In this document: positions 5,507-50,432 of the stretch, piece after piece
Layout of the letters: each line of letters begins with the position of its first letter
Position numbering within the stretch: position 1 is the stretch's first letter
Assembly: GCA_934096815.1 (NCBI GenBank)
Contig: CAKOMY010000002.1
Span: 9,546 to 73,545 of the forward strand
Length of the DNA stretch: 64,000 nt
Direction: 5' to 3'
DNA from: an uncultured Bacilli bacterium
Lineage (GTDB): Bacteria; Bacillota_I; Bacilli_A; RF39; UBA660
The notes under the pieces: model-generated
What the model was told of the DNA's origin: nothing
Databases searched by the model: none
Seen by the model: the letters and a program-made list of their open reading frames with translations, nothing else
Made by a program: the position numbers and the translations under genes

Positions 5507-5568
5507 ATGTAAATTGTTAATTGTATTTTAAATATTATATTGGTAAAATTATTGTAGGTGAATATGTA

Positions 5569-6939
5569 ATGATATATGAGTGTGATAAATGTGGGTTTAA
5601 ACATGAAGGAATACTGCCGGATGGATATCATTGTCCTTTGTGTTTATCGGGGTATGATCATTTAATTCCCATTGAATTTGAAAATAAAGTATATAAAAGG
5701 GTAGAAATATCTAATGGAAATGTTGGAATTAGAAGAATAGAGGAAAAATGCATTAATTGTGGTATGTGTTTAAGGACTTGTGAAAAAGTAACTAATTGTT
5801 TAGTTAATACGGCAAATAATGATTATAAAGATTCAAATGATTTATGTTTAGAATGTGGAAATTGTATATTAACTTGTCCTACATCATCATTAATTCCAAA
5901 GTATGATTATCAAGAAGTGCTAAAATATATTGATAACCCTGATTATATTGTAATAGCACTAACTAGTCCTGCAACAAGAGTTGGAATTGGAGATGCTTTT
6001 TTCAAAGAACCTGGTATGTTTTTAGAAGGCAAAATGGTAGCTGCTTTAAAAAAATTAGGGTTTGATTATGTTTTTGATTTAACTTTTGGAGCGGATATTA
6101 CATCAGTAGAGGAAGCACATGAATTAAAAGAAAGATTAGAAAGTAGGGGAAAACCCATGTTTTCTAGTTGTTGTCCTTCTTGGGTAAAATATTGTCATAT
6201 AGTTCATCCTGAGCTAATAGATAATTTATCCACTTGTAAGAGCCCTATTGGTATGGCAAGTACAGTTATAAAAAAATTATTTGCACCTAATGAGTATGAT
6301 AGAGATAAAAAAATAATAATAGTGGCTGTAACGCCTTGCACAAGTAAAAAAAGAGAAATTGTTGGTACAGATACTGATTTTGTTATTACTACAAGTGAGC
6401 TAGCTTTGATGATTAGAGAAAATGGGATTGATTTTAATAAATTAGAAGATGCTGCTTTTGATAGAGTAAAAGGATCATTTTCTGGTACTAATTATGGAAC
6501 TGGTGGAGGAGTTACTAAATCAGTTGTTAGGTGTCTTTATTATGAGATGACTGGTAAAGATTTAAAAGAAAAAGATTATATAATAGAAGATAAAGAATAT
6601 TACAGGTTACTTAAAGTTAAAATTAATTCAAGAATTGTTAGATGTATAATAGTTAGTACAATGTCAAATTTAGAAAAAATACTAAAAAATGATGTTGAGT
6701 TTGATTTTGCTGAGATTATGTATTGTGATGGTGGATGTGTTTCAGGCGGAGGCCAAGTCTTAATGCCTGTTAAAGATAAAGAATTGATTAAACAAAAAAG
6801 AGCAGAAAGCTTGAACAAAAAACATAATGAGATTGAATACTATCCTTATAAAAATGACTTAATAGATGATTTATATAATACTTATTTAAATAATCCGGGA
6901 AGTGCTGATGCTCATAAATATTTACATATTAATCATTAA
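5569..6939 (+). CDS. [FeFe] hydrogenase with 2x[4Fe-4S] ferredoxin-type and N-terminal Cys4 (rubredoxin-like) motifs
   Basis: H-cluster signatures SSCCPSW (L1), TPCTSKKRE (L2), EIMYCDGGCVSGGGQ (L3); CINCGMCLRTC and CLECGNCILTCP ferredoxin motifs; ATG 5569 has RBS AGGTGA, whereas the track TTG start at 5521 does not. Confidence 0.8.
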   Translation: MIYECDKCGFKHEGILPDGYHCPLCLSGYDHLIPIEFENKVYKRVEISNGNVGIRRIEEKCINCGMCLRTCEKVTNCLVNTANNDYKDSNDLCLECGNCILTCPTSSLIPKYDYQEVLKYIDNPDYIVIALTSPATRVGIGDAFFKEPGMFLEGKMVAALKKLGFDYVFDLTFGADITSVEEAHELKERLESRGKPMFSSCCPSWVKYCHIVHPELIDNLSTCKSPIGMASTVIKKLFAPNEYDRDKKIIIVAVTPCTSKKREIVGTDTDFVITTSELALMIRENGIDFNKLEDAAFDRVKGSFSGTNYGTGGGVTKSVVRCLYYEMTGKDLKEKDYIIEDKEYYRLLKVKINSRIVRCIIVSTMSNLEKILKNDVEFDFAEIMYCDGGCVSGGGQVLMPVKDKELIKQKRAESLNKKHNEIEYYPYKNDLIDDLYNTYLNNPGSADAHKYLHINH

Positions 6940-12936: not shown

Positions 12937-13535
12937 TGAATATAAATTATAATGAAGAAATGAAAAAAATAATAAGTAATTTAGATAGTAATAATACACT
13001 TTTATTACATTCATGTTGTGGACCTTGTTCAACAGCAGTAATTGAAAGATTAAAAGATTACTTTGATATAACAGTTCTTTATTATAATCCAAATATTGAA
13101 CCGAAAGATGAATACATAAAAAGAAAAGAAGAACAATTAAAAGTATTAAAAGAATATAATATTAAATTTAAAGATATTGATTATTTAAATGAAGAATATC
13201 GTAAGAAAGTAATTGGATATGAAAAAGAACCAGAAAATGGCGCAAGATGTCATATTTGTTATGAACTTAGATTAGAAAAAACAGCTATTCTAGCTAAAGA
13301 AAATAGCTTTGATTATTTTGCAACAACCTTAACTGTTAGTCCATATAAAAATGCTAAAGTGATTAATGAAATAGGACTTAAGTTACAAAACAAATATGAT
13401 GTTAAATATTTACTTTCTGATTTTAAAAAAGAAGATGGTTATAAGAAAAGTATTGAACTATCTAAAAAATATAATTTATATCGTCAAGATTACTGTGGAT
13501 GTTTATTTAGTAAGGAGAGAAAAGTAGATGAATAA
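12933..13535 (+). CDS. queH: Epoxyqueuosine reductase QueH (DUF208)
   Basis: LLLHSCCGPCS...YYNPNIEP...DYCGCLFS cysteine pattern typical of QueH. Confidence 0.7.
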   Translation: MMNINYNEEMKKIISNLDSNNTLLLHSCCGPCSTAVIERLKDYFDITVLYYNPNIEPKDEYIKRKEEQLKVLKEYNIKFKDIDYLNEEYRKKVIGYEKEPENGARCHICYELRLEKTAILAKENSFDYFATTLTVSPYKNAKVINEIGLKLQNKYDVKYLLSDFKKEDGYKKSIELSKKYNLYRQDYCGCLFSKERKVDE

Positions 13536-13923
13536 AAAAGGATTTACATTAGTTGAGATATTAGCAACACTTGTGATACTATCTTTTATATTTATGCTTA
13601 CTTATCCAACGATACAAAAGGCTTTTAACAATGGTAAAACAGCAATTTCTGAATTAAGTAAGAAACAAATTGAAGATGCAGCTAAAATAGTAATAGATGA
13701 AGTTATTTATTGCAATATGTCAGAAGATACTAAATCACTGTTAAATGCTACTAACTGCAAGGATGCACTTGATAAAATTGTTAATGGAATTAATGTTGAT
13801 ATTTCTAAATTGAATTTAGACAATATAAATAATAAACAAAAATGTGAAGGTATAATAAGTATAAAAATAGATAGAGAAACATATAAAGAAACAATAGATA
13901 TGACAAATGTAATATGTAAATAA
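13528..13923 (+). CDS. Prepilin-type N-terminal cleavage/methylation domain protein (type IV pilin-like pseudopilin)
   Basis: MNKKGFTLVEILATLVILSFIF matches the class III signal and N-methylation motif. Confidence 0.6.
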   Translation: MNKKGFTLVEILATLVILSFIFMLTYPTIQKAFNNGKTAISELSKKQIEDAAKIVIDEVIYCNMSEDTKSLLNATNCKDALDKIVNGINVDISKLNLDNINNKQKCEGIISIKIDRETYKETIDMTNVICK

Positions 13924-13932
13924 GGTGAGGTT

Positions 13933-14904
13933 ATGGGACTATTTAATAAATTTAAAGAAATATTTAAAAAAGAAGATAAACAAGATATTGAAGCTTTTGA
14001 TAAAGGATTAGAAAAAACTAGAAATGAATTTGTTTCTAATTTAAGTTTTCTAGGTCATAAATATACTAAAGTAAATGATGAATATTTTGATGAACTTGAA
14101 AGTATTTTAATCAAAGCAGATATTGGTGTTAATACTACTTATAAGTTTTTGGATAAATTAAAAAAGAGAGTTAAAGAAGAAAAAATAGAAGATGCTGAAG
14201 TATTAAGAGAAATAATTATAGATGAATTATTCATGATTTATGTTGATGGCGATAATTTAACCGATAAAATTAATATTCAAAAAGAAGGACCAACAGTTAT
14301 ATTAATGGTTGGAGTTAATGGAGTAGGAAAGACAACAACTATTGGAAAAATTGCAAACAATTATAAAAAACAAGGACATAAAATAATGTTAGTTGGAGCA
14401 GATACATTTAGAGCAGGAGCCGTTAAACAATTAGAAGAATGGGCTAAAAGAACTGGTTCAAGCTTTTGTGGTAAAGAAAATGTTGATCCTTCAAGTGTTA
14501 TTTATGATGGATTAGAACAAGCCCTAAAAGAAAAATGCGATTTAATAATTATAGATACAGCTGGAAGATTACAAAATAAAGTAAATCTAATGAATGAGCT
14601 TGAGAAAGTTAATAAAGTTATAGGTAAAATAATTCCGGGAGCTCCTCATGAAACTTTGTTAGTAATAGATGCAACAACTGGTCAAAATGGTATAAGTCAA
14701 GCTGAAAGTTTTAAAGAAATTACAAATATTACAGGGATTGTTTTAACAAAATTAGATGGAACAGCTAAAGGTGGTATTGTCCTTGCAATTAAAGAAGAAG
14801 TTAAATTACCCGTTAAATTTATTGGCTTAGGTGAAGGAATTGATGACTTAAAATCATTTGATATTGAAGAATATATTTATGGGCTTCTAAAGGACTTAAT
14901 GTAA
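13933..14904 (+). CDS. ftsY: Signal recognition particle receptor FtsY
   Basis: SRP GTPase motifs GVNGVGKTTT, DTAGR, TKLDG; short Gram-positive form. Confidence 0.85.
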   Translation: MGLFNKFKEIFKKEDKQDIEAFDKGLEKTRNEFVSNLSFLGHKYTKVNDEYFDELESILIKADIGVNTTYKFLDKLKKRVKEEKIEDAEVLREIIIDELFMIYVDGDNLTDKINIQKEGPTVILMVGVNGVGKTTTIGKIANNYKKQGHKIMLVGADTFRAGAVKQLEEWAKRTGSSFCGKENVDPSSVIYDGLEQALKEKCDLIIIDTAGRLQNKVNLMNELEKVNKVIGKIIPGAPHETLLVIDATTGQNGISQAESFKEITNITGIVLTKLDGTAKGGIVLAIKEEVKLPVKFIGLGEGIDDLKSFDIEEYIYGLLKDLM

Positions 14905-15185
14905 TGGATGATATTGTATATTATAATGCTTTGTTTGATTATTATGGAGAATTATTAACAACAACTCAAATTAATTATTTTAAGGCTTATTATTATGACA
15001 ATTTAAGTTTAAGTGAAATTTCAAGTGAATATAATGTGTCAAGAAATGCTATTAGTAAAACTTTAAAAGAAGTAAAAGATAAACTAGATTATTATGAAAA
15101 TAAATTAAATTTATATAAAAATAAACAAGTAATTATTAATTTATTGCCGGAAAAAGATATTGATTTGATTATAAATTATATATAA
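14904..15185 (+). CDS. ylxM: YlxM/UPF0122 putative DNA-binding protein
   Basis: 93 aa, sigma-region-4-like HTH (LSLSEISSEYNVSRNAISKTL); canonical position after ftsY. Confidence 0.7.
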   Translation: MDDIVYYNALFDYYGELLTTTQINYFKAYYYDNLSLSEISSEYNVSRNAISKTLKEVKDKLDYYENKLNLYKNKQVIINLLPEKDIDLIINYI

Positions 15186-15238
15186 AGGTTATATTTAAAA
15201 TATAAGCTTTTTTTATGCTTTGATTAGCGAACATTAAT

Positions 15239-15267
15239 TTGACTTATAGTAAGATAAATGTTATAAT
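15239..15267 (+). promoter_or_regulatory. Consensus sigma-A-type promoter upstream of the first large sigma gene
   Basis: TTGACT, 17 nt, TATAAT, followed by a GGGGGA RBS and ATG 15291. Confidence 0.45.
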
Positions 15268-15290
15268 ACGACTTAATTAATGGGGGATTT

Positions 15291-17240
15291 ATGAAATATC
15301 AAAATAAAAATAATCAAATTTTTATTAAATTAAAGTCTAAATTAAGTAGATATTATGATGAAATTCGTTTAATACCAATGAGTAAGGAATATTATTTCGA
15401 TTATGTAACTGAATTGATTAGTAGATGTAGTTGTGAAAATGAAGAAGAAGTATTTAATTTGATAAAAGATCAAACTATAGAGTTAATTTTAAATAGTGAT
15501 AATTGTTTTGAATTTATAAATGGATATATTAATGATAATTTTTCTATAAATAGTGATATTTTAGATTTTTTTAACAAGTTAAATAATTTATTGTTGAAAT
15601 GTAAAAAATTAATAGATTTGGATTTTTATATTGAATTACTAAATAAAAATAAGTTATTGTATTCTATAACTGAATTATATTTTAAGAAGCGTGAGGAACA
15701 AATTATTGGAAGTAATCTTTGGGATTTATTAGATTGTTATGTATTAGTTTATTGTTTACAAGCATATTTAATAATAAATAATATTGAACTTAAGGAAGAA
15801 ATAATTGATTTTGATTACGAATTTGATTATGATTATAAAACTGATTCTTTAACGCAATATTTAAATGAAATAAAACAATATAAAGTTTTAGATGCTCATG
15901 AAGAAAGAAAAATTATTATTGCTACTCAATGTGGTAATATAGAAGCACGTGATTTATTTATAAAATGTAATTTAAGATTAGTAGCAAGTATAGTTCTTAA
16001 AAATTATAATAATAAAGGTATATCAATTTTGGATTTAATTCAAGAAGGAAATATTGGCATGATGCGAGCACTTGATAAATTTAATGTTAATGCTGGATAT
16101 AAATTTTCAACTTATGCTTATCCATGGATTAAACAATATATTGAAAGATATATTGAAAGAAATGGAAGAAATATAAGAATTTCAAGTAATTTTATATTAA
16201 AAATCAATAAATATAAGACTGTATATAGTGAATTAGAAATTAAATTAGGTAGAAAACCTACTAGAAAAGAAATAAGTGTCTTTGCTGGTTTATCAGAAAG
16301 TGATATAGAATTAATTGAAAAAAATTTAAGTGATGTTCTTAGTTTGGATGCGAAATGTGATAATAATGAAGATTTTAAAATATCTGATTCAATAGTAGAT
16401 CCTAGTCCATTATTTGAAGAAGAATATATAGAACAAGAACAAATTAAAATTTTAATGGACAGTTTTTCGAAAGCTAAATTATCTGATAGAGAAGTTGAAA
16501 TATTAAAATGTAGAAATGGCTTTTATGGCAATATTATGTCTTATGAAAAAATTGGAAAAAAATATAATATTAGTAAAGAAAGAGTAAGAAAAATTGAAAT
16601 TGCTACAGTTAAAAAGATAAAAGAATATTTAGAAAAAACTGGAGTTCTTTCAGAAAAAATAAATGTTGATAATATAAATTCAAAACTTATATATGACTAT
16701 TTTAAAGATTATTCTAGGGAACAGATAAATTATGCAATAAAATTTTTGAACGAAGGATATAAAAAGTTAATTTATCTTCATTTAGGAAAAAATTTAAATA
16801 AATTATATGCTTCAAGGTTAAATAGTGAACAAATAAAAATGTTTGATGATTATGTTTTGATAAGAATTTTTAATATTTTATTAATGATATTTGGAGATAG
16901 AAATAGTGATTATAAAAAAGAATTGAATAAAAAAACGTTTGATATAATGCTGTGTTTATTAGAAATGTATCCTTTTACAATAATAAAAGAAAATATATCT
17001 TTAGATGTGTTGATCACGGGGTTATTAAAATTAGGGTATGTTAATGGAGATACTTACAGTGATGAAGTAATTGCTAAATTTTTTAATACATCTGTAGAAA
17101 ATATTACCAAATATTTTAGGGATTTTTTAAGGCTTACTAAAAGTGATCCTTATATTAATAGTATAGTAAAAGAAAAAGAATTTTATTTAAAGTTAGCAAA
17201 CCTAACATATATGGCTAAGATTAATAAAAAGATAAAGTAG
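15291..17240 (+). CDS. Atypical 649-aa sigma-70 family protein (regions 1.2-4 flanked by about 175-aa N-terminal and about 200-aa C-terminal extensions)
   Basis: RpoD-like core: FIKCNLRLVASIV (2.1), DLIQEGNIGMMRALDKF (2.2), YKFSTYAYPWIKQYI (2.3/2.4), region 4 HTH LSDREVEILKCRNGF...ISKERVRKIEIATVKKIKE. Confidence 0.6.
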   Translation: MKYQNKNNQIFIKLKSKLSRYYDEIRLIPMSKEYYFDYVTELISRCSCENEEEVFNLIKDQTIELILNSDNCFEFINGYINDNFSINSDILDFFNKLNNLLLKCKKLIDLDFYIELLNKNKLLYSITELYFKKREEQIIGSNLWDLLDCYVLVYCLQAYLIINNIELKEEIIDFDYEFDYDYKTDSLTQYLNEIKQYKVLDAHEERKIIIATQCGNIEARDLFIKCNLRLVASIVLKNYNNKGISILDLIQEGNIGMMRALDKFNVNAGYKFSTYAYPWIKQYIERYIERNGRNIRISSNFILKINKYKTVYSELEIKLGRKPTRKEISVFAGLSESDIELIEKNLSDVLSLDAKCDNNEDFKISDSIVDPSPLFEEEYIEQEQIKILMDSFSKAKLSDREVEILKCRNGFYGNIMSYEKIGKKYNISKERVRKIEIATVKKIKEYLEKTGVLSEKINVDNINSKLIYDYFKDYSREQINYAIKFLNEGYKKLIYLHLGKNLNKLYASRLNSEQIKMFDDYVLIRIFNILLMIFGDRNSDYKKELNKKTFDIMLCLLEMYPFTIIKENISLDVLITGLLKLGYVNGDTYSDEVIAKFFNTSVENITKYFRDFLRLTKSDPYINSIVKEKEFYLKLANLTYMAKINKKIK

Positions 17241-17248
17241 GTGTTAGT

Positions 17249-19198
17249 ATGAATAATGATAATATATATGAAATTATAATAGAATGGTTAGAATCTTTAT
17301 ATAGTGAGATACCATATATTTCGAAAAATTTATCCGATTATTTGGAATATGTGAAAGAAAAATTAAAAGATGAAAAATTAAATATTGATAGTTTAAAAAT
17401 TGAATTAAAAGATAAGATTATAATAGATATATTAAAAGGATATAACTATTTAGAGTTTTTGAATTTTTATATAAATCATAATTTTAAGGAAACTAATAAA
17501 ATAGAAGAAATAATAGATTATTTTTATGAATTAAACAGGTTAATAGAAGATTCTGGAAGAATAATGTTAATGGATGATTATTTTTATTTATTAAAAAATA
17601 ATAAAATTCTATTAAAATTACTTGAAGTTGTATATAATAGGTACGATAAATTTATAAAAAATAATAGATTTTCGGAGGTTAATAGTAATTCTTTATTAAA
17701 AGCAATTATGCAGGCTTATTGTGATTTAAATAATATTGAAATAGAAGATAGATTTGATAAATTAGAAGATTATTATAGTGATGATAGTTTAGCACAGTAT
17801 ATTTTTGAAATTAGAAGATATCCATTGTTAAATAAAGAAGAAGAAAGAATGTTAATTCTTGAAATAAATAAGGGTAATCAAGATGCTAAAGATTTCTTTA
17901 TAAAATGTAATTTAAGATTAGTTGTATCTGTGGTAATGAGAGAATTTTATAGTTGTTCAATATCTAAATTAGATTTAATTCAAGAAGGAAATTTAGGATT
18001 AATGAGAGCTGTTGAAAAATATAATATTTTAAGTGAGAATAAGTTTTCTAGTTATGCTTACTATTGGATTGAATCCTTTATAACTAGGGCTATAAATAAT
18101 CAATGTCGTACTATTCGCGTTTCTGTTGATTTTCATTATAAAATAAATAAGTATAAAAAGATTTATGAATTATTATTCAACAAATATGGTAGAATTCCAA
18201 CAATGCAAGAAATGATAGAAGCAACAGGAATGAATGAGGAAACTATAAATCTTATTCGAAGTAATCTTATTGGTGTAGTAAGTTATGATTTAGAAGTTAC
18301 CAATGATACTACAGATAAAATATTAGATTTTGTAGAAGATTCAGATGCGAATATTGAAGCAAATTTTCTAATAAAACAGAAGAAAGAAATTTTTAGACAA
18401 TTGTTTAAGAGTAATTATTTAAGCGAAAGAGAAAAGAAAATTTTAATTGATAGGTTTGGTTTTAATGGAGATATTAAATCTCTTGAAGAAATTGGTGCTG
18501 AAATGAAAATAACTAGAGAAAGAGTAAGACAACTTGAGGAAAAAGCAAAAAGAAAAGCATTTAATTTTATCAAAAAACATTATAGAAAAATAATTGAAGT
18601 ACCAAATGAATATCAAAATGGTTTAGATAAAAACTCTGATTTGGTTCAAAAACCATTATATTCTTCATTACCATATCCTTTTGAACAAGTTGATAATGTA
18701 ATATCATTATTGGATAAAAAAGAGCGTGATTATGTAGAATTAAAATATGGAACGGACTTAAGTAAAGCTTATGAATCTAAATTATCAAAATATGAGACTA
18801 AACGTTTTTATAAATTAGTTTTACCAAAAATAAAATTACTTCTAGAACAATTAAATGAAAGTCAACCTGTTTCTGAATTTGATACAATTCAAAGTGATAC
18901 ATGTAATAGACTTTTGAAGTTAATTAGACTGGATTCAATTAATGAATTAATAAATTTATATTCATATAACACTATTGTTATTGGTTTTCTTAAAACTGGT
19001 TATGTTGATTTAATTAAATATAATAATTTAGTAATTGCTAATTTTCTTAATATTAGTGAAGAAAATGTGATAAATGATTTTGAAAAGTTTCAAGGATTAT
19101 CAAATAATGATGAGAAATTAATAGATATTTTATCTAAACGAACTAAATATATTAATTTAATTTCAAAAAAAGAAACTACTGAAAAGTTGTCAAAGTAG
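17249..19198 (+). CDS. Atypical 649-aa sigma-70 family protein, tandem paralog of the preceding gene
   Basis: FIKCNLRLVVSVV, DLIQEGNLGLMRAVEKY, FSSYAYYWIESFI, region 4 LSEREKKILIDRFGF...ITRERVRQLEEKAKRKA; same length and architecture as 15291..17240. Confidence 0.6.
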   Translation: MNNDNIYEIIIEWLESLYSEIPYISKNLSDYLEYVKEKLKDEKLNIDSLKIELKDKIIIDILKGYNYLEFLNFYINHNFKETNKIEEIIDYFYELNRLIEDSGRIMLMDDYFYLLKNNKILLKLLEVVYNRYDKFIKNNRFSEVNSNSLLKAIMQAYCDLNNIEIEDRFDKLEDYYSDDSLAQYIFEIRRYPLLNKEEERMLILEINKGNQDAKDFFIKCNLRLVVSVVMREFYSCSISKLDLIQEGNLGLMRAVEKYNILSENKFSSYAYYWIESFITRAINNQCRTIRVSVDFHYKINKYKKIYELLFNKYGRIPTMQEMIEATGMNEETINLIRSNLIGVVSYDLEVTNDTTDKILDFVEDSDANIEANFLIKQKKEIFRQLFKSNYLSEREKKILIDRFGFNGDIKSLEEIGAEMKITRERVRQLEEKAKRKAFNFIKKHYRKIIEVPNEYQNGLDKNSDLVQKPLYSSLPYPFEQVDNVISLLDKKERDYVELKYGTDLSKAYESKLSKYETKRFYKLVLPKIKLLLEQLNESQPVSEFDTIQSDTCNRLLKLIRLDSINELINLYSYNTIVIGFLKTGYVDLIKYNNLVIANFLNISEENVINDFEKFQGLSNNDEKLIDILSKRTKYINLISKKETTEKLSK

Positions 19199-19205
19199 TT
19201 TCTTT

Positions 19206-19934
19206 TTATTTGATTATTGATTCTAGTGCTAAGATAATCATTTTGTTAAGATTTAATTGTCTTTCTTCAGCTGAATAATCTTTTCCTTTTTCAAATGGAC
19301 TATCAGTTATTGTTACTAAACAAGTTGCTTCTTTATCGAGATAGTCTGCGATACTATATAAACCAAATGATTCCATTTCACTAGCAAGTAATTTAATATT
19401 TTTAGGAATTTGTTTATTTAAATGAGGTGTAGGAATATATGGTTCAAATATTTCGGAAGTATATAATCCACCTTTTTTTAATTCAATATTAAGACTTTTA
19501 GCCTTACTTTCAATAATTTGATTTAAATTATTAGTAGATGATATTTTTTTTGCTTTACTCTTACACATAGCATATCTTATATTTGAAAAAGAAAATGAAT
19601 ATGTGCCAAGAACAATATCACCAACTGAAATATTTGGGTTAAATGCTCCAGCTGAACCAATTCTAATAATTTTTTTAACATTATAGATTTGATATAATTC
19701 ATAAGCATATATGCAGCAACTGGCACATCCCATACCAGAACCTATGACCGTTATTCTTTTTCCTTTATAAAATCCGGTATATCCTAACATATTTCTTATT
19801 GTGTTAATTAAAACTGGCTTTTCTAAATAATGTTCAGCAATATATTTTGCTCTTAATGGGTCTCCTGGAAATAATACTCTAGGAGCTATATTTTTTTTAT
19901 CAGTTACAATGTGAACTGGATTCACTTTTATCAA
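19206..19934 (-). CDS. deoD: Purine nucleoside phosphorylase, DeoD-type (PNP/UDP family)
   Basis: LFPGDPLRAKYIAEHYL...GYTGFYKGKRITVIGSGMGCASCCIYAYEL closely matches the DeoD N-terminal signature. Confidence 0.75.
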   Translation of the reverse strand: MIKVNPVHIVTDKKNIAPRVLFPGDPLRAKYIAEHYLEKPVLINTIRNMLGYTGFYKGKRITVIGSGMGCASCCIYAYELYQIYNVKKIIRIGSAGAFNPNISVGDIVLGTYSFSFSNIRYAMCKSKAKKISSTNNLNQIIESKAKSLNIELKKGGLYTSEIFEPYIPTPHLNKQIPKNIKLLASEMESFGLYSIADYLDKEATCLVTITDSPFEKGKDYSAEERQLNLNKMIILALESIIK

Positions 19935-22657: not shown

Positions 22658-23149
22658 ATGGAAAATATGATTATAGCATTTGATTATGTTGGAACGGATA
22701 ACAATATACATACTGAGGTATATAGACATTATAAAGAAGAACCATTTATAGTTAGTCCAAGTGTAGAGTTTGCATATATTCCAGCAAAAAGAATATTACA
22801 AAGAAATTTAGCATCAATTGTATCATTTAATGTTTATTATTTTGATAATGAAGGGAAATATATTAAAGAATCTTATTATATTTGTAGTAAAAAAAATAAA
22901 TATAAAAAATTTTTAAATAAAAATTATGAAAATGAAAAAGAAAAATTAGAACAATTGAAATTGAAAATATCTTTATTAAATATTCTTAGTAGAATTAATA
23001 AACATGCAAATGATATTAATGTTTCGTTAAATGAGACAGTCGGAGAATTTATGAACCATTCTCATCTTTGCAAATCAAGAAGTGAATTACTTACTAAATT
23101 GGATGAGTGGATATCACTACAAGAAGAAAGTAAAATTAAAAGAAAATAA
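22658..23149 (+). CDS. Hypothetical protein
   Basis: 163-aa ORF with RBS GGGGAAAAA; no recognised motif. Confidence 0.3.
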   Translation: MENMIIAFDYVGTDNNIHTEVYRHYKEEPFIVSPSVEFAYIPAKRILQRNLASIVSFNVYYFDNEGKYIKESYYICSKKNKYKKFLNKNYENEKEKLEQLKLKISLLNILSRINKHANDINVSLNETVGEFMNHSHLCKSRSELLTKLDEWISLQEESKIKRK

Positions 23150-23241
23150 TTTAATTACCGGCAGGGAAATCAAAACCCACCGGAATTTTTTAATATAAAT
23201 TATCATATATATTATAAATTACAAATAGAACAAAAATTCGC

Positions 23242-23269
23242 TTGACGGGGGGGCTTTTAAAGGTATAAT
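23242..23269 (+). promoter_or_regulatory. Consensus promoter with G7 tract (paralog copy 2)
   Basis: TTGACGGGGGGGCTTTTAAAGGTATAAT, identical to the 9643 and 24846 copies. Confidence 0.55.
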
Positions 23270-23294
23270 TTCACTATGGAATATGGTGATTTAT

Positions 23295-24788
23295 ATGAAT
23301 AAAGAAGAACAAATAAAAGTATATGTAATGATAGGAACAGTAGTGATGCTCTTAGTGATCTTTTCGGGAATAACATATGCTTTTTTTAGTGCCAGTAATA
23401 ATAAAGGAAGTACATCGATAGTAGAGGTAAAAAGTGGTAAAATGACAATAAGTTATGCAAATGGTAAAAGTAGATTGTTAGTATCAAAAGATATTCAACC
23501 AAGTGATAAGATAATAATAGATAAAACTTTTACATTAACAGGAACAAATACAACAAGTGGCTTAGCTATGCCATATAAGATAGGACTAAATTATGTATCT
23601 GAGTTTAGTGATGGACAAATACATTATTATATTAAAAGAACAAACGCCAATAGTAATATAACAAGTAATTTAGTAGGAACAGCAAATCAAACAATACCAG
23701 GAAATACCACTGAAACAGGATATACTACTGGGACACTTAAAAAAGGTAATAGATACTTAGAACTAGCAACAGGAGAATTTAAAGCAAACACAAGTAATCA
23801 AACAATAACATTTAATTTAAAAATCCAATTTCCTGTTACCGGAGTAAGTCAAGATAGTGAAAAAGGAAAAACACTAACTGGTGAAATAGTTGTAAATTAC
23901 GAAGAAACAGCAACTGATACCTTAATGGCTCTTTATGATAAAGAAACAAAGACAAATGAAGTATCAACAAGTGGATTATTTATTGATGATACTAAAGATG
24001 TAAATTTAAGATATACCGGAGCAACACCAAATAACTATGTCGAGTTTAATAATGAGACATGGAGAATAATTGGAATATTTAATGTATTTAATAATGAAAC
24101 TAAAAAAGTTGAAAAAATGATTAAAATAATAAGAAATGAATCTCTTGGATTATATTCTTGGGATACGTCTAATTCTAAAGTGAACGATGGAAAAGGAATT
24201 AATGAATGGAGTCAAGCAAAATTAATGTATGAATTAAATACGGATTATATAGACATTAGTAAAAGTGGAACAACTAAATGGTATAATGGTCCGGAAAATG
24301 CACAAAATGAAATTTATGAATATAGTAAAAACATAAATAGTGATTCGATGGATAAAATAGCAAATGTTAAATGGAATACTGGTGGAACAATATACGGAGT
24401 AAACGTAATTACTTCTTACAATCAAGAACGAGGAACAATTAATGTTGATAATCCGACAGATGGAATTGTTAGAAATAGTTATTGGAATGGTAAAATTGGA
24501 TTATTATATCCAAGTGATTATGGTTATGCATCCTCAAATGATATATGTAGAAGTCAGTTGAGTTCACCTGACTGTAAAAATAATAATTGGATTTTTATAG
24601 GTATGAGTCAATGGACAATAACTCCTTATAAAAATAGTAGTATGAGATCATTTAGTTCATTAGAACATGGTATTATAAATGATACCAATGTAAGCAATCC
24701 AAGTAATGTTCGTCCAACAATTTTTTTAAAAAATCATGTAAAAATAATAAGAGGAGAAGGAACAAATTCTAATCCATATCAAATATAG
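23295..24788 (+). CDS. Secreted protein, paralog family member 2
   Basis: Start moved to the ATG aligned with the other paralogs (MNKEEQIKVYVMIGT...); shares the conserved N-domain; mosaic C-region (middle like copy 4, end like copy 3) ending ...VRPTIFLKNHVKIIRGEGTNSNPYQI. Confidence 0.6.
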   Translation: MNKEEQIKVYVMIGTVVMLLVIFSGITYAFFSASNNKGSTSIVEVKSGKMTISYANGKSRLLVSKDIQPSDKIIIDKTFTLTGTNTTSGLAMPYKIGLNYVSEFSDGQIHYYIKRTNANSNITSNLVGTANQTIPGNTTETGYTTGTLKKGNRYLELATGEFKANTSNQTITFNLKIQFPVTGVSQDSEKGKTLTGEIVVNYEETATDTLMALYDKETKTNEVSTSGLFIDDTKDVNLRYTGATPNNYVEFNNETWRIIGIFNVFNNETKKVEKMIKIIRNESLGLYSWDTSNSKVNDGKGINEWSQAKLMYELNTDYIDISKSGTTKWYNGPENAQNEIYEYSKNINSDSMDKIANVKWNTGGTIYGVNVITSYNQERGTINVDNPTDGIVRNSYWNGKIGLLYPSDYGYASSNDICRSQLSSPDCKNNNWIFIGMSQWTITPYKNSSMRSFSSLEHGIINDTNVSNPSNVRPTIFLKNHVKIIRGEGTNSNPYQI

Positions 24789-24845
24789 TATATATAATAT
24801 AAATTACCATACATATTATAAATTACAAATAGAACAAAAATTCGC

Positions 24846-24873
24846 TTGACGGGGGGGCTTTTAAAGGTATAAT
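24846..24873 (+). promoter_or_regulatory. Consensus promoter with G7 tract (paralog copy 3)
   Basis: TTGACG plus G run, 16 nt, TATAAT; the whole 24786-24897 intergenic region is near-identical to 23180-23294. Confidence 0.55.
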
Positions 24874-24897
24874 TTCACTAGGATAAGGTGATTTTAT

Positions 24898-26457
24898 ATG
24901 AATAATAAAGAAGAACAAATAAAAGTGTATGTAATGATAGGAACAATAATAATGCTCCTAGTGATATTTTCAGGAGTAACATATGCTTTTTTTAGTGCCA
25001 GTAATAATAAAGGAAGTACATCAATAGTAGAAGTAAAAAGTGGAAAAATGACAATAAGTTATGCAGATGGTAAAAGTAGTTTATTAGTATCAAAAGATAT
25101 TCAGCCAAGTAATAAGATAATAATAGATAAAACTTTCACGTTAACAGGAACAAATACAACTAGTGGACTTGCCATGCCATATAAAGTAGGACTAAATTAT
25201 GTATCTGAGTTTAGTGATGGACAAATACATTATTATATTAAAAGAACGAATGCAAATGCAAATATCACAAGCAATTTAATTGGAACTGCAAATCAAACTA
25301 TACCAGGAAATATTTCTGAAACTGGTTATACTTTTGGAACACTTAAAAAAGGTAATAGATACTTAGAACTAGCAACAGGAGAGTTTAAAGCAAGCACAAG
25401 TAATCAAACAATTACATTTAACCTAAAACTACAATTTCCTGATACAGGTATCAATCAAGATAGTGAAAAAGGAAAAACACTAACTGGTGAAATCGTTGTA
25501 AATTATGAATCTGAAACTATTGCTAAAACAATTTCTAAATTAGATAAAGAAAGTAATGGACTTGAAATAGATGATACTGTAGATAAAAATTTAAGATATG
25601 TAGGAGTAAATCCTAGAAACTATATAACATTTAACAACGAAACGTGGAGAATTGTTGGCGTATTTAATAACATTACAACTATAGATGATAATGGAAATGA
25701 AAAACAAGAATCATTAGTAAAAATAATACGAGATGAACGTATAGGAAGCTATTCATGGGATAGTTCATCATCAGATATAAATGATGGTAGTGGAATCAAT
25801 GAATGGAGTCAAGCAGACTTAATGTATGAACTTAACTGTGATGGAACGTCTTCATCAAAATATTGTCGCGAAGATATAGCCGGTGGCTATTTATCAAACA
25901 TTACAAATGGAACAACTAAATGGTATAATACTCAGAATAATATTCAAGGTGCAACTTATTATTATAGTAAAAATGTCAAAAAGGAATATATAAATTATAT
26001 TGCAACTGCTAGATGGAATTTAGGTGGGGCAACATACGGCTCGAGTTCATTAAAATCATATAATGAGGAACGAGGAACTAACCATATAAGTAACCCATCA
26101 GATGGAATCTCAAGAACTAACTTTTGGAAAGGAAAAATTGCTTTATTGTATCCAAGTGATTATGGGTATGCTTCAACAGATTCATTATGTAGAAGTGATA
26201 TGCGTTCACAAACTAGTAATATTTATAATTGTCAAAATAATAATTGGTTATTCAATGGTACATATCAATGGACATTGTCTTCATTTTCTGATAGGGATAA
26301 AGCTATATTTAATTTCACTAATAAAGGGTGGGTAACTAATGTCGATGCATGTGCTAGTAGTAGCGTACGTCCAACTCTATACTTAAAATCTGATATTGTA
26401 ATAGTTGGAGGAACTGGAGAAAAAGGAGATACATATATAATAGATGAAATTAAATAA
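24898..26457 (+). CDS. Secreted protein, paralog family member 3
   Basis: N-terminal 60 codons nearly identical in DNA to the gene at 9695; C-terminal module ends VRPTLYLKSDIVIVGGTGEKGDTYII. Confidence 0.6.
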   Translation: MNNKEEQIKVYVMIGTIIMLLVIFSGVTYAFFSASNNKGSTSIVEVKSGKMTISYADGKSSLLVSKDIQPSNKIIIDKTFTLTGTNTTSGLAMPYKVGLNYVSEFSDGQIHYYIKRTNANANITSNLIGTANQTIPGNISETGYTFGTLKKGNRYLELATGEFKASTSNQTITFNLKLQFPDTGINQDSEKGKTLTGEIVVNYESETIAKTISKLDKESNGLEIDDTVDKNLRYVGVNPRNYITFNNETWRIVGVFNNITTIDDNGNEKQESLVKIIRDERIGSYSWDSSSSDINDGSGINEWSQADLMYELNCDGTSSSKYCREDIAGGYLSNITNGTTKWYNTQNNIQGATYYYSKNVKKEYINYIATARWNLGGATYGSSSLKSYNEERGTNHISNPSDGISRTNFWKGKIALLYPSDYGYASTDSLCRSDMRSQTSNIYNCQNNNWLFNGTYQWTLSSFSDRDKAIFNFTNKGWVTNVDACASSSVRPTLYLKSDIVIVGGTGEKGDTYIIDEIK

Positions 26458-26780
26458 TTTTATCAAAACAAAAAAAGATGATAAATATAGAAAACTTCAA
26501 TAATATATTTGATAAATTCCAAAAATATATTATAAATCATGGTTGGTGACATAAAAAAGGATTAAAATTCATAAAATTTTGTGCTGATTATTCTTGAATT
26601 TAATCGTATCATAAATATGTCGAAAGATAGTAATTTTGAAGGAAGAGAAACAGTTTAGCGACTAAGGAATCTCTTCTTTTATTTTATCTTAATATTCTTT
26701 AAATAATGTGCAATTCATTTTACACTATCTATGGCCCGTCAAGTGTAGTTAAAAAATTTTTAAAGTGAACCTACGTTTGC

Positions 26781-26808
26781 TTGACGGGGGGGTAAATGGC
26801 GATATAAT
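26781..26808 (+). promoter_or_regulatory. Consensus promoter with G7 tract (paralog copy 4, divergent spacer)
   Basis: TTGACGGGGGGGTAAATGGCGATATAAT; -35, G7 and -10 are conserved although the spacer sequence differs. Confidence 0.5.
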
Positions 26809-26838
26809 TTGACTATGATATAGGAAGGATAAAGAAGA

Positions 26839-28398
26839 ATGAATGAACAAAAAGTAAGAACAATTGTGGTTTTATCAATAATAATAATGATGATAGTGTT
26901 ATTTATTGGAATAACTTATTCTTATTTTACTGCTTTAAATAATAAAGGAAGTACATCATTAATATCAGCAACAAGTGGTAAAATGGTAATAAGTTATGCC
27001 GATGGATCTAGTAAATTATTATCAAGTGAAAATATACAGCCAAGTAATAAGATTTTAATAGATAAAACATTCACATTAACTGGAACAAATACAACTAGTG
27101 GCTTAGCCATGCCATATAAAGTAGGCCTAAATTATGTATCTGAGTTTAGTGATGGACAAATACATTATTATATTAAAAGAATGAGTACAAATAGTAATAT
27201 AACAAGCAAATTAGTAGGAACAGCAAATCAAACAATACCAGGAAATACAACTGAAACAGGATATACTACAGGAACACTTAAAAAAGGTAATAGATACTTA
27301 GAACTAGCAACAGGAGAGTTTAAAGCAAATACATCAAATCAAACAATAACATTTAATTTAAAAATCCAATTTCCGGATACCGGAGTAAGTCAAGATAGTG
27401 AAAAAGGAAAAACACTAACTGGTGAAATAGTTGTCAATTACGAAGAATCAGCAACTGATACCTTAATGGCTCTTTATGATAAAGAAACAAAGACAAATGG
27501 AGTATCAACAAGTGGATTATTTATAGATGATACTAAAGATGTAAATTTAAGATATGCAGGAGCAACACCAAATAACTATGTTTATTTTGGAAATGATAAT
27601 GAATTATGGAGAATAGTTGGAATATTTAATGTAACAGATTCAGAAGGTAATACAACAAGAAAACTAAAATTAGTAAGAGATTCAGCATTAGGTGGATACT
27701 CATGGGATGCAACTGGAAATAATAATCATGGATTTAATGATTGGACAGATGCAGATTTAATGAAAGAATTAAATGGAGATTATTTAAATACAACCTTAAC
27801 AGCCAATAAAACAAATTGGTACAATTCATATTGGGATTCTAGCACACAAAAACCAGTATTAAGACAAACAGGAACATTTAACTATACAACTGTCATAAAA
27901 GATAAATATCAAAACATGATAAGCAATAGTGTATGGAACATCGGTGGAAATAGTTATACCGATTCTACACCATATTCTATAAACTTATTAACTCAGTATA
28001 ATCGTGAGAGAGATAAAATAACCTATCAAAATAGTCGTCCTACCACTTGGATAGGTAAGGTTGGACTTATTTATGCAAGTGATTATGGTTATGCATCAAC
28101 TTATGCAGAATGTCATAAAAACTTAAGAGTAGGAGTAACTTATGATAAATCTACTAATAAGTGGGATTATTCTGGACTATGTAAAATAGATAACTGGCTT
28201 GCCAAGAACTCATGGTACTGGACATTGTCGCCTTACTCTGGTGACTCGTATCACGTGTTCTATGTGCATGGGGACGGTGCTGTCAACATCCTCGACGCGT
28301 GTCTTTCCAACAACGTTTTTCCGACAGTTTTCTTGAAATCTGATGTCAAAATAACAAGTGGAACAGGTGAAAAAGGAAGCCCATATATTTTAATTTAA
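26839..28398 (+). CDS. Secreted protein, paralog family member 4
   Basis: Divergent signal region (MNEQKVRTIVVLSIIIMMIVLFIGITYSYFTALNNKGSTS), same conserved N-domain, distinct C-region ending VFPTVFLKSDVKITSGTGEKGSPYILI. Confidence 0.6.
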   Translation: MNEQKVRTIVVLSIIIMMIVLFIGITYSYFTALNNKGSTSLISATSGKMVISYADGSSKLLSSENIQPSNKILIDKTFTLTGTNTTSGLAMPYKVGLNYVSEFSDGQIHYYIKRMSTNSNITSKLVGTANQTIPGNTTETGYTTGTLKKGNRYLELATGEFKANTSNQTITFNLKIQFPDTGVSQDSEKGKTLTGEIVVNYEESATDTLMALYDKETKTNGVSTSGLFIDDTKDVNLRYAGATPNNYVYFGNDNELWRIVGIFNVTDSEGNTTRKLKLVRDSALGGYSWDATGNNNHGFNDWTDADLMKELNGDYLNTTLTANKTNWYNSYWDSSTQKPVLRQTGTFNYTTVIKDKYQNMISNSVWNIGGNSYTDSTPYSINLLTQYNRERDKITYQNSRPTTWIGKVGLIYASDYGYASTYAECHKNLRVGVTYDKSTNKWDYSGLCKIDNWLAKNSWYWTLSPYSGDSYHVFYVHGDGAVNILDACLSNNVFPTVFLKSDVKITSGTGEKGSPYILI

Positions 28399-31566: not shown

Positions 31567-31843
31567 AATAGGAATTTAAGTAGTCAAAAAATGCAGAACA
31601 AATTACTCTAAATTTGCACAATATATGTTGATAAAATCATATGTTATTCCTATAGACAGGTGAATTTGATGAGCTTAACAAAAAAGTTTATAAATAGATA
31701 AAGCGACAAAAGAAAATATATAGTTATAACAATGGAATATATTCAATTTATGAAAAATATCAACAAAAGAAATTTAAATCATACTTTTTTATTGTTTTAT
31801 CGTTAATTTTATTATATACTTTAAGCGTAAGGATGTGATAGTT

Positions 31844-37816: not shown

Positions 37817-37831
37817 GAAAGGAAAAAGAGA

Positions 37832-39220: not shown

Positions 39221-39258
39221 TAATTATTATAGTAAAGATTGAAGGAGGTTAAAGTAAT

Positions 39259-40107: not shown

Positions 40108-40115
40108 GAGGTAAT

Positions 40116-44706: not shown

Positions 44707-44714
44707 GGAGAATT

Positions 44715-45425: not shown

Positions 45426-45436
45426 ATGTAAAGGTT

Positions 45437-47602: not shown

Positions 47603-47603
47603 G

Positions 47604-50426: not shown

Positions 50427-50432
50427 TTAATT

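Follow-up and report, generated by a model that had tools for sequence, protein, structure and literature searches.

An extended tandem sigma-70-family gene pair in a hypervariable, recombining cassette of an uncultured gut Bacilli genome

Introduction

What are the two large sigma-like proteins encoded one behind the other downstream of ftsY and ylxM in an uncultured, very AT-rich Bacilli genome: housekeeping sigma factors, alternative ones, or proteins that have left sigma function behind? An earlier note, made from the letters of a 64,000-nucleotide stretch of this genome (the window), had described them as two tandem 649-residue sigma-70-like proteins of equal length, placed where ffh would be expected. 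ORF and Pfam analysis confirmed the description of the pair, and we report here what the proteins, their relatives and their locus suggest about their role.

Results

The gene pair, its relatives and its predicted promoter

The locus is arranged as follows.

13933 to 14904, plus strand: ftsY, left flank (Pfam)
14904 to 15185, plus strand: ylxM, left flank (Pfam)
15225 to 15233, plus strand: conserved TAGCGAACA block, directly upstream of the -35 hexamer (alignment)
15239 to 15267, plus strand: predicted sigmaA-type promoter, TTGACT, 17-nt spacer ending in TG (extended -10), TATAAT (11 of 12 matches plus TG)
15282 to 15286, plus strand: ribosome binding site GGGGG, 4 nt before the sig1 ATG (conserved in 4 of 4 aligned loci)
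15291 to 17240, plus strand: sig1, 649-aa extended sigma-70-family protein (ORF, Pfam, PDB matches)
17249 to 19198, plus strand: sig2, 649-aa paralogue of sig1 (ORF, Pfam, PDB matches)
19206 to 19934, minus strand: purine/uridine nucleoside phosphorylase-family gene (PNP), right flank (PF01048 in orthologous loci)

Eight bp separate the sig1 stop from the sig2 start, and the two genes are probably co-transcribed; PNP is convergent with sig2, their stop codons lying 7 bp apart. The proteins are 35% identical over 638 aligned residues, nearly their whole length (BLASTP, E 6e-92), in agreement with the moderate identity noticed earlier. Both reading frames are unbroken despite a genomic GC content of 23%, at which stop codons are frequent, and the GC content of the locus equals that of its surroundings. 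The same 649 + 649 tandem was found in L091 (a 204-kb ENA contig) and in L092 and L093 (Logan), and the sister species (L094) also carries a tandem pair. Among the ORFs of the window and of 10 kb past either end (84 kb in total), there was neither a second SRP54-type protein (ffh), as the earlier note had stated for the window, nor a third sigma factor or canonical sigA. Many genes of the window are accessory or defence-like.

Both proteins belong to a family that we defined by a common domain at the N-terminus (N-domain, see below), with clusters drawn at 50% identity. At least 1,021 such clusters exist, and the family constitutes a large, undescribed, modular branch of sigma-70 in very AT-rich uncultured gut Bacilli. 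Domain architectures differ among its members and tandem copies recur; the N-domain and the C-terminal modules occur independently of each other, and therefore need not act together. The order ftsY-ylxM-sigma is kept only in the genus-level clade of the window (L001, L095). Elsewhere family members follow uvrC, mnmA, rpoA-rplQ or a HIT gene, so that the "position of ffh" is incidental synteny. In L001, a KilA-N gene is inserted near the sigma locus.

A conserved promoter of sigmaA type with an extended -10, the best site within 13.8-20.1 kb, is predicted to drive the pair. Across genera its two hexamers are retained, unlike the spacer between them. In the L001/L003 genus and in the sister species the TAGCGAACA block is unchanged from the window, although the spacer has diverged; the block may bind a regulator or act like an UP element. 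Half of the 16 strongest matches to TTGACA-N16-18-TATAAT fell in the intergenic 11.5%, an excess partly confounded by intergenic DNA being more AT-rich than coding DNA. From the end of each of these eight to the start of a downstream gene there are 14-36 nt, and one of them is the promoter just described. These sites indicate that canonical promoter specificity is in use in the source organism.

A sharply bounded, hypervariable cassette

Two further features were obtained by comparison with related genomes and between the two copies.

15130 to 19200, no strand: hypervariable segment (sliding-window identity against L095)
15957 to 15982, plus strand: 26-nt stretch identical to 17897-17922 in sig2, encoding FIKCNLRLV of region 2.1 (longest common substring)

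DNA identity to L095 fell from 87-94% to 55-65% in the segment, and rose again to 86-95% at the PNP stop codon; at the protein level, FtsY, YlxM and PNP are 96%, 82% and 94% identical to those of L095, respectively. The sigma proteins are 41% identical between genomes whose FtsY, MurG and PNP are 94-96% identical (flanking genes overall, 80-96%), and a second comparison gave 40% for sigma versus 76-94% for the flanks. The sigma gene or genes thus form a sharply bounded cassette, whose sequence type differs drastically between otherwise close genomes. Relatives with near-identical flanks carry a single sigma gene, and sig2-type proteins were found only in the source species and its sister species. 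The "old duplication" of the earlier note is for this reason uncertain, the locus behaving as a replaceable hypervariable cassette and not as two copies that drift apart slowly. In another strain, L096, a hybrid gene was found, matching sig1 over nt 1-660 and sig2 over the remainder, and its crossover point is the 26-nt shared stretch. We conclude that tandem duplication of the cassette, and recombination between its copies, can occur.

Such behaviour raises the question of a mobile, phage or defence origin, for example as an anti-phage sigma of the MZA type or a prophage remnant. This would explain the patchiness and the hypervariability, and is in keeping with the sharp bounds of the swapped segment, with a sigma gene evolving far faster than its flanks, with the appearance of MzaA among the NCBIfam and PADLOC matches, and with the KilA-N gene of L001 and the abundant accessory and defence-like genes. 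We nevertheless judge it improbable. No integrase, transposase or repeats were found at the cassette borders, the GC content is that of the surroundings, and in every relative the sigma locus keeps its place between ylxM and PNP, under a conserved promoter of host type. Moreover, the MzaA match is limited to the generic sigma core (profile positions 427-658, 104-165 bits for a cut-off of 800), PHROG returned for the extensions just one marginal match, with the sig1 N-domain (phrog_18168, E 0.0029), and the N-domain has no viral structural relative.

The sigma core and the question of housekeeping function

The sigma core occupies the middle of each protein.

15843 to 16625, plus strand: sig1 sigma core, region 1.2 aa 185-206, region 2 aa 224-293, region 3 aa 304-371, region 4 aa 395-445 (Pfam, PDB)
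17783 to 18556, plus strand: sig2 sigma core (Pfam, PDB)

The earlier note had proposed a complete RpoD-like core and a search with the Sigma70 models to check it. Sigma70_r1_2, r2, r3 and r4 were all found in both proteins (aa 185-445 of sig1, aa 179-436 of sig2), r2 and r4 above their gathering cut-offs in each; the core was thereby recovered in full, and the extensions remained unmatched in Pfam. The quoted motifs CNLRLV, LDLIQEGN and KFS(T/S)YAY.W are indeed present, as is LLDKKERDYVELKYG in copy 2. With the superfamily model TIGR02937, sig2 scored 90 bits (cut-off 43). Against solved SigA, RpoD and RpoS structures the cores gave E values of 1e-38 to 1e-45: RpoS and SigA for sig1 (1e-41 to 1e-38), and, as best matches for sig2, SigA of C. 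difficile, B. subtilis and S. aureus (1e-40 to 5e-45). The core-binding motif of region 2.2, DLIQEG..G, is invariant in the family. By these sequence criteria sig1 and sig2 qualify as true members of the sigma-70 family.

Promoter-contacting residues are another matter. Region 2.3/2.4 reads YAYPWIKQYIERYI in sig1, which is non-canonical, and YAYYWIESFITRAI in sig2. The -10 contacts, canonically YATWWIRQAITR, are YAYPWIKQYIER in sig1 and YAYYWIESFITR in sig2; the equivalent of W433 is replaced by P or Y, and further -10 contacts are altered. In region 4.2, sig1 has SKERVRK and sig2 the canonical TRERVRQ, the group 1 reference being TRERIRQ. Deeper family members have fully canonical -10 and -35 contact residues; such proteins may recognise sigmaA-type promoters and may serve as primary-like sigmas in the genomes that encode them.

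Most likely, sig1 and sig2 are not housekeeping sigma factors. Pfam found no sigma-1.1 domain (PF03979) in either of them, and their scores (sig1/sig2) are far below the cut-offs of PRK09210 (168/186 bits, cut-off 572) and RpoD_Cterm (180/181 bits, cut-off 354), as well as of the RpoS equivalog (190 bits, cut-off 379). Over their full length they are about 27-28% identical to canonical SigA, and for the cores of other family members the value is 40-50%; the listed relatives of one canonical SigA, P0045, match it at about 78-83% identity. The dnaG-sigA operon is typical of Firmicutes, and P0045, a relative of canonical length, lies in the order dnaG-sigA-trmK. In none of six distinct genomic contexts was dnaG adjacent to a family member. 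Primary-like regions 1.2-4 without region 1.1 are as in group 2. Sigma-1.1, an equivalog-level score, dnaG synteny, strong conservation and canonical contacts, which characterise group 1, are all wanting, with the exception of the canonical -35 contacts of sig2. Support for a co-existing group 1 sigma is indirect and comes from the canonical promoters, no separate canonical sigA lying within the 84 kb.

The alternative, in which the two proteins are the primary sigmas of the lineage, duplicated and with added domains, and their length is that of a standard SigA, deserves consideration. Their core is closest to groups 1 and 2, with SigA of three Firmicutes as the best solved matches of sig2; one member of the family is called RpoD/SigA at NCBI; the surrounding genes are core genes, in conserved synteny; the acidic N-domain and acidic linker recall the sigma-1.1 layout; and the 84 kb show no other sigma. 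We find this alternative unlikely, because a factor that reads every housekeeping promoter cannot be swapped in the way implied by 41% identity between sharp boundaries, next to flanks at 94-96%. Region 2.3/2.4 is non-canonical, although canonical promoters are enriched and conserved, and the low equivalog scores, the lack of dnaG linkage, the variable architectures, the recurrent tandem copies and a dN/dS 6-10 times that of ftsY or PNP all point the same way. The earlier note's view of the pair as something other than standard primary sigmas most likely holds.

The N-domain and the C-terminal modules

Outside the core, the following parts were delimited.

15291 to 15800, plus strand: sig1 N-domain, aa 1-170, acidic, about 10 helices, the family signature (AlphaFold, family search)
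15801 to 15842, plus strand: sig1 acidic linker, aa 171-184, pI 4.1 (low pLDDT)
16677 to 16922, plus strand: sig1 C-module A, aa 463-544, degenerate region-4-like (hhalign, PDB profile)
16926 to 17228, plus strand: sig1 C-module B, aa 546-646, pseudo-sigma-4 helix-turn-helix without the -35-contacting R/R/R/Q
17249 to 17752, plus strand: sig2 N-domain
18647 to 18886, plus strand: sig2 module A
18890 to 19183, plus strand: sig2 module B

Structure prediction, also suggested by the earlier note, gave confident AlphaFold models of the extensions (pLDDT 85-88). The sig1 N-domain is modelled as all-helical (pLDDT 87.6, pTM 0.77); it has a pI of 4.8, and the conserved motif AYCxxNNIEIKE marks its C-terminal end. 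This family-specific acidic domain and the acidic linker take the place of sigma-1.1 before the core. Pfam found nothing for aa 1-180 or 450-649 of sig1 and sig2. The claim that some 175 residues before and 200 after the core lack recognisable similarity stands for the N-domain, which has no relative in PDB, Pfam, viral structures or within the proteins themselves, and fails for the tail, whose profile matches sigma region 4 in PDB (E 3e-4). Module A gave weak PDB matches with region 4.1 of S. aureus and B. subtilis SigA, and aligned with the family's own sigma-4 at a probability of 81% (hhalign, E 1e-5); it is present in 1-2 copies in relatives (two being the maximum detected). For module B the corresponding probability was 73%, and the equivalents of R584, R586, R588 and Q589 are missing. 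The tail can thus be described as two degenerate sigma region-4 modules, the terminal one lacking the DNA-contacting arginines, and the second region-4-like helix pair perceived earlier in copy 2 (LLDKKERDYVELKYG) agrees with both the profile and hhalign. As to fused regulatory, anti-sigma or partner domains, large conserved extra domains do exist, and no anti-sigma-like domain was found in the extensions.

The extensions are conserved across the 25 aligned family members. Relative to the sister species, dN/dS is 0.33 for sig1, 0.30 for sig2 and 0.31 for the sig1 N-domain, with a per-domain range of 0.14-0.38, values that point to purifying selection on all domains, extensions included.

With three region-4-type modules per protein, one clearly without DNA contacts, and non-canonical residues in the melting region, sig1 and sig2 might be sigma-derived proteins that no longer initiate transcription, acting as decoys, as anti-anti-sigma-like factors in the style of PhyR, or as transcription factors with multiple sigma-4 helix-turn-helices. 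This is improbable as well, given the invariant core-binding motif of region 2.2, the presence of regions 1.2, 2, 3 and 4, all under purifying selection, and the RER.R motif kept by the genuine region 4.2 of both copies; nor did Pfam detect a receiver or other signalling domain in either protein. Finally, that the pair is an artefact (mis-assembly, frameshifted fusions with neighbours, or decaying pseudogenes), to which the hybrid gene, being on one Logan contig and conceivably an assembly chimera, might lend weight, is effectively refuted because three or more independent assemblies, and also the sister species, share this layout, dN/dS is about 0.3 throughout the domains, the extensions are kept across hundreds of clusters, and the ORFs are intact in a stop-rich 23% GC genome.

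Discussion

We propose, with a probability of roughly two thirds, that sig1 and sig2 are functional, non-housekeeping, group-2-like modular sigma factors, residing in a hypervariable and recombining cassette. A separate canonical SigA would transcribe the cassette, and each of the two products would guide RNA polymerase to its own, non-canonical and probably small set of promoters, since the paralogues differ in their contacts both at -10 (region 2.3/2.4) and at -35 (region 4.2). By analogy with sigma-1.1, the acidic N-domain may be auto-inhibitory and guard either DNA binding or the polymerase channel. For the pseudo-sigma-4 modules we propose a part in protein interaction or regulation rather than in further DNA reading; they may be docking sites, or decoys in cis, for factors that bind sigma-4.

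Comparison with known systems

PhyR is not a sigma factor, having a fused receiver domain and no functional core. The tail of sig1 and sig2 resembles it at the level of fold, but here the pseudo-sigma-4 is in cis to an apparently functional sigma, with no known NepR-like partner, and we rejected a PhyR-type decoy on account of the full sigma core and the missing receiver domain. MzaA, of the MZA anti-phage system, is likewise a long sigma-70-family protein (about 700 aa) with a large non-sigma N-terminal part; this part is however unrelated, MzaA has no C-terminal sigma-4 repeats, and no MZA partner genes were found near sig1 and sig2. Membership was rejected, the alignment being confined to the sigma core (PADLOC profile positions 425-658 of 683) and the NCBIfam score, 155-165 bits, being far below the cut-off of 800.

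The concept of a sigma factor with an extra domain after region 4 is shared with ECF41, ECF42 and OrbS, in which that domain is reported to modulate the activity of its own sigma (PMC3426412, PMC9023288). These are minimal sigma-2 + sigma-4 proteins with SnoaL-like, TPR or Cys-rich extensions, whereas sig1 and sig2 are full four-region proteins of the group 1/2 type, extended by duplicated sigma-4 modules and a separate N-domain. An ECF41/42-type sigma was rejected, regions 1.2 and 3 being present and the extension sigma-4-like.

With Firmicutes SigA (B. subtilis 7ckq_F, C. difficile 7l7b_F, S. aureus 8x6f_E) the pair shares the order of regions 1.2-4 and an acidic N-terminal part before region 1.2. 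It differs by its length (649 aa versus about 370), its two additional region-4-like modules, its changed -10 contacts, and the lack of a PF03979 match and of dnaG-sigA-trmK synteny.

Closer are the group 2 sigmas (RpoS; actinobacterial SigB and HrdA-D; cyanobacterial SigB-E), which also have complete primary-like regions 1.2-4, no sigma-1.1, and a co-existing primary sigma, the latter inferred for sig1 and sig2. RpoS and M. tuberculosis SigB are among the top NCBIfam/PDB matches. Group 2 proteins are however of about 300-350 aa, with no structured N-terminal domain of about 170 aa and nothing after region 4, and the RpoS equivalog score given above is half the cut-off. To our knowledge, group 2 sigmas have not been described in Firmicutes, and hypervariability between near-identical genomes has been reported for none of them. 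A parallel may be drawn with Turicibacter sanguinis (gut Bacilli/Erysipelotrichia), in which one true sigA orthologue and two further "sigA paralogs" are listed without characterisation (PMC13492147): compared by this description, a true sigA accompanied by two sigA-like genes is the very situation proposed here.

Two tandem extended sigma factors follow ftsY and ylxM

Analysis of the ORFs, Pfam searches and independent assemblies confirmed the presence, reported in the earlier note, of two tandem 649-aa sigma-70-like proteins after ftsY and ylxM. The features of the locus are the following:

14904-15185, ylxM
15225-15233, TAGCGAACA block, adjoining the −35 hexamer of the sigma promoter on its upstream side; candidate regulator-binding site
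15239-15267, TTGACT-17-(TG)-TATAAT, promoter ahead of sig1
15291-17240, + strand, sig1, extended sigma-70-family protein
17249-19198, + strand, sig2, extended sigma-70-family protein

The two proteins have exactly the same length and share 35% identity along all of it (E 6e-92), in a window whose G+C content is about 23% throughout. Pfam placed Sigma70_r1_2, r2, r3 and r4 at aa 185-445 of sig1 and aa 179-436 of sig2, and gave no match within the N-terminal ~180 or the C-terminal ~200 residues of either. Judging from their sequence, both retain an intact core for RNA polymerase binding and promoter recognition. A mis-assembly or frameshift fusion is ruled out, as three independent assemblies from the window species (L091, L092 and L093) and one sister species (L094) show the same 649+649 arrangement.

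Upstream of the pair lie ftsY (SRP54_N and SRP54 GTPase domains) and ylxM (UPF0122), and the pair had been thought to stand at the position of ffh. The window indeed lacks ffh, but the placement is incidental, the order ftsY-ylxM-sigma-PNP (PNP being the convergent nucleoside phosphorylase gene of the right flank) being conserved in the window's genus-level clade only. When the FtsY NG domain and both sigmas were compared by BLAST with every ORF of the window, no Ffh-like paralogue and no third sigma was found, nor is either present in the 10 kb past the two ends; ffh, rpsP, dnaG and a canonical sigA are absent from these 84 kb. Beyond the window are serS and thrS on the upstream side, and the S10 ribosomal operon downstream, from about 4.7 kb past the right end. 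In the single-sigma relative L095, rpsP and a KH-domain gene are found 7 kb downstream of the sigma gene (L095:19314-19837), without ffh, which indicates that the ancestral SRP/rpsP operon had already been split up in this lineage. The ffh gene must be located beyond the 84 kb covered here. No match was obtained when the window was scanned for Rfam families and tRNA genes.

A helical N-domain and a tail of degenerate region 4 copies

Both extensions are conserved in a 25-sequence family alignment, where the tail modules (A and B) are recognisable and the N-domain shows invariant residues, Y159 and I165, within the motif AYCxxNNIEIKE. The predicted model of the N-domain is confident, with about 10 helices (pLDDT 87.6, pTM 0.77). 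Between this mildly acidic domain (pI ~4.8-5.5) and region 1.2 stands a linker that is strongly acidic (pI 4.1), a layout reminiscent of sigma-1.1. A phage origin of the N-domain was rejected, since no viral structural match was obtained, and the comparison of the extensions with PHROGs gave nothing meaningful (a single marginal match, E 0.0029).

The tail profile matched region 4 of solved SigA/RpoD structures (E ~3e-4), the first module corresponding weakly to region 4.1. In profile-profile comparisons with the family's own region 4, module A scored a probability of 81% (E 1e-5) and module B of 73% (E 3e-5). On these matches the tail is identified as two degenerate copies of sigma region 4, and the region-4-like character suspected for LLDKKERDYVELKYG was correct. 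In module B, which is acidic, the equivalents of the −35-contacting residues R584, R586, R588 and Q589 are neutral or acidic, so that this module is unlikely to read DNA in the manner of sigma region 4.

A large and modular family from AT-rich gut Bacilli

A protein search brought up many metagenomic sigma-like proteins of 600-860 aa, and an exhaustive HMM search detected the N-domain in 1,021 clusters at 50% identity, of which 671 had E<=1e-10. It is placed at the N-terminus, or within a few residues of it, in the best 150 of these 1,021 matches, which are proteins of mostly 450-1,000 aa (maximum 1,474 aa). Using local module HMMs, we observed the architectures N+core+A+B (the window type), N+core+2A+B, N+core+A, N+core and core+A+B; among the matches listed, no canonical-length sigma had any N, A or B module. 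Because the N-domain and the C-modules each occur without the other across the family, they probably correspond to separable functions.

All family loci examined have a G+C content of 23-27%, and their sources include human (Hadza) gut and, per its isolate name, a rabbit-gut MAG. A scan of a genome collection with the family alignment, seeded with generic sigma motifs, produced at least one true family locus (L011) among the matches listed. The sole named member is called 'RpoD/SigA [Bacilli bacterium]' at NCBI; on a gut Bacilli family of more than 1,000 clusters, such a label may mislead predictions of regulons and essentiality for uncultured lineages. The family was not described in the literature searched on sigma C-terminal extensions, Firmicutes group 2 sigmas and hypervariable sigmas.

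The sigma locus behaves as a replaceable cassette

L095 and the window are almost one organism by their flanks (identity of 96% for MurG, 95% for FtsQ, 93% for QueH, 96% for FtsY and 94% for PNP). The single sigma of L095, P0007, is 41% identical to sig1. The other single-sigma relative, L001, has flanks at 76-94% identity and a sigma at 40% to sig1 and 34% to sig2. At the DNA level, identity to L095 is 87-94% in ftsY, drops at ~15,100-15,200 to 55-65% through the sigma segment, and from exactly the PNP stop codon onward is again 86-95%.

Compared with the sister species, dN/dS was 0.33 for sig1, 0.30 for sig2 and 0.14-0.38 for the N, A and B modules, versus 0.03 for ftsY and 0.05 for PNP. By this measure both sigma genes are functional, and the extra domains appear conserved and under selection. 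At the rates measured, drift in situ cannot give 41% identity within a 95% backbone. From these comparisons the locus behaves as a replaceable cassette of marked hypervariability. Such divergence inside a ~95% identical backbone, with sharp borders, is unusual for a transcription initiation factor, and suggests that promoter specificity, or sigma regulation, can be a target of diversifying selection.

The relatives with the same synteny, L001 and L095, have one sigma gene. In a distance tree these single-copy orthologues cluster with sig1 to the exclusion of sig2, and the window species and its sister species are the only ones in which sig2-type proteins were found. An unrelated clade of the family possesses its own tandem pair (L007:8001-11626), of 602 and 597 aa and without C-module B in either protein, so tandem duplication of these genes is recurrent. 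The start of sig2 is 8 bp past the sig1 stop, which makes their co-transcription probable, and the sig2 stop is 7 bp from the convergent PNP stop.

The longest DNA stretch common to both genes is 26 nt (15957-15982 and 17897-17922) and encodes FIKCNLRLV of region 2.1. In L096, a contig of the window species (Logan SRR17335711, flanks at 97-99% identity), a single sig1/sig2 hybrid of 655 aa occupies the space between ylxM and PNP (L096:4475-6442). Its nucleotides 1-660 match sig1 and the remainder sig2, the switch falling at the shared 26-nt stretch, so that sig1 contributed the N-domain and region 1.2, and sig2 everything after them. The hybrid may have arisen by a genuine recombinational deletion or may be a chimera of the assembly; in the first case, it shows that domains are shuffled between sigma copies.

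It is conceivable, although we consider it improbable, that the cassette serves in conflict or as a marker of strain identity, and that diversifying selection acts on its sigma factor. The pseudo-sigma-4 modules would then, in one version, act in cis as sensors of, or decoys for, those proteins of phages or competitors that are directed at region 4 (AsiA, Rsd, ORF67-like). In another, each cassette type would be a private sigma/promoter 'lock and key' for variable surface or defence genes, and new specificities would come from tandem duplication and inter-copy recombination at the region 2.1 stretch, an event that the sig1/sig2 hybrid, if real, exemplifies.

A dedicated sigmaA-type promoter

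Of the 16 strongest matches to TTGACA-N16-18-TATAAT, eight are located in the intergenic 11.5% of the window, and the distance from the end of each of these eight to the gene start downstream is 14-36 nt. This organism evidently makes use of canonical sigmaA-type promoters. The best one in the region is that of sig1, and the sigma operon thus appears to have a dedicated promoter of this type. Its hexamers, the TG and the upstream TAGCGAACA block are invariant across genera, and the spacer has diverged. The block could be bound by a regulator.

sig1 and sig2 are most likely not the housekeeping sigma

No sigma-1.1 domain was detected in sig1 or sig2 with Pfam, and both score below half of every RpoD/SigA/RpoS equivalog cut-off of NCBIfam. 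In none of the six distinct contexts examined does dnaG adjoin the family sigma; these contexts include positions after ftsY-ylxM, after rpoA-rplQ with a 979-aa ORF, and after a HIT gene, uvrC or mnmA. The best canonical-length match, P0045, is in a classical dnaG-sigA-trmK operon and is ~78-83% identical to its relatives from many lineages among the matches listed; family cores share only 40-50% identity with P0045. The window clade departs from the canonical sequence in region 2.3/2.4: at the position equivalent to W433, sig1 has P and sig2 has Y, and the equivalents of Q437 and T440 also vary. Region 4.2 of sig1 deviates from TRERIRQ.

A housekeeping role is therefore disfavoured, the decisive argument being the divergence rate compared to the flanks; the evident use of canonical sigmaA-type promoters, that of sig1 among them, also counts against it. 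We classify sig1 and sig2, on sequence grounds, as group-2-like members of the sigma-70 family, and infer a canonical sigA in the same genome. A precedent is found in Turicibacter sanguinis, which has one true sigA orthologue and two additional 'sigA paralogs' (PMC13492147). By its predicted make-up the pair is more than a duplicated sigA: the N-domain and the duplicated pseudo-region-4 modules, housed in a hypervariable cassette, are novel.

The following scheme may be proposed. A separate SigA would transcribe the sig1-sig2 operon. Since the two sigmas are not alike at their −10 and −35 contact positions, each would bring RNA polymerase to its own, probably small, set of promoters. A sigma-1.1-like role, auto-inhibitory or gatekeeping, may fall to the acidic N-domain and linker, and the pseudo-sigma-4 modules may be protein-binding or regulatory, either as docking sites or as decoys for factors that bind sigma region 4.

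Neighbouring genes

The ylxM product itself has a match to Pfam Sigma70_r4 (E 3e-5), as an HTH resembling sigma region 4. Among the core flank genes, ylxM shows the lowest conservation (77-82% identity, versus 94-96% for ftsY; dN/dS 0.42, on few changes), and its 3′ end is the start of the divergent segment. Between queH and ftsY, a small pilin-like gene with an N-terminal methylation motif (13528-13923) is unusually variable as well (52-63% aa identity, versus 80-96% for its neighbours), and has an inserted KilA-N gene next to it in L001. At the distant locus L004, queH, a pilin-like gene and a Tad-like pilus operon again adjoin a family sigma; the 979-aa ORF found there between rpoA-rplQ and the sigma (L004:6960-9899, 'Bacilli bacterium' MAG GCA_017528315.1) has no Pfam match.

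At 22658-28398, a 163-aa ORF is followed by three tandem paralogues (501, 519 and 519 aa), all without Pfam or NCBIfam match, and each paralogue has a strong TTGACG-16-TATAAT promoter upstream. This block is missing at that position in L095 and L001, and is thus an insertion beside the sigma cassette region. Of the window ORFs scanned, about half are without a match in Pfam or NCBIfam. Further along, 31835-57216 is an accessory, surface-related region; its features are given here with a gene of the left part of the window:

5521-6939, [FeFe] hydrogenase group A gene, which indicates an anaerobic fermentative lifestyle
31835-33250, dockerin-domain protein
35549-41547, sortase-dependent pilus operon (VWA tip pilin, backbone pilins, two sortases)
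41718-43579, AAA_21 ATPase and RloB pair, typical of defence systems
44020-54167, polysaccharide biosynthesis cluster
56182-57216, PD-(D/E)XK transposase-family gene

Comparison with known systems

Sigma factors are among the best-studied bacterial proteins. The class nearest to sig1 and sig2 is that of group 2 sigmas, which are primary-like, lack region 1.1 and coexist with a primary sigma; they have no structured N-domain and nothing past region 4. To our knowledge, group 2 sigmas have not been described in Firmicutes, and we know of no group-1/2-type sigma with duplicated pseudo-region-4 modules or with this type of N-terminal fold. In the literature searched, ECF sigmas (ECF41, ECF42 and OrbS, for example) are the only ones described with domains fused after region 4, and their C-terminal regulatory domains have folds unrelated to the tail of sig1 and sig2. 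An affiliation of the cassette to MZA defence was rejected, the match being confined to the sigma core, which is all that MzaA has in common with sig1 and sig2. For a sigma-like decoy blind to DNA, PhyR offers a functional analogy.
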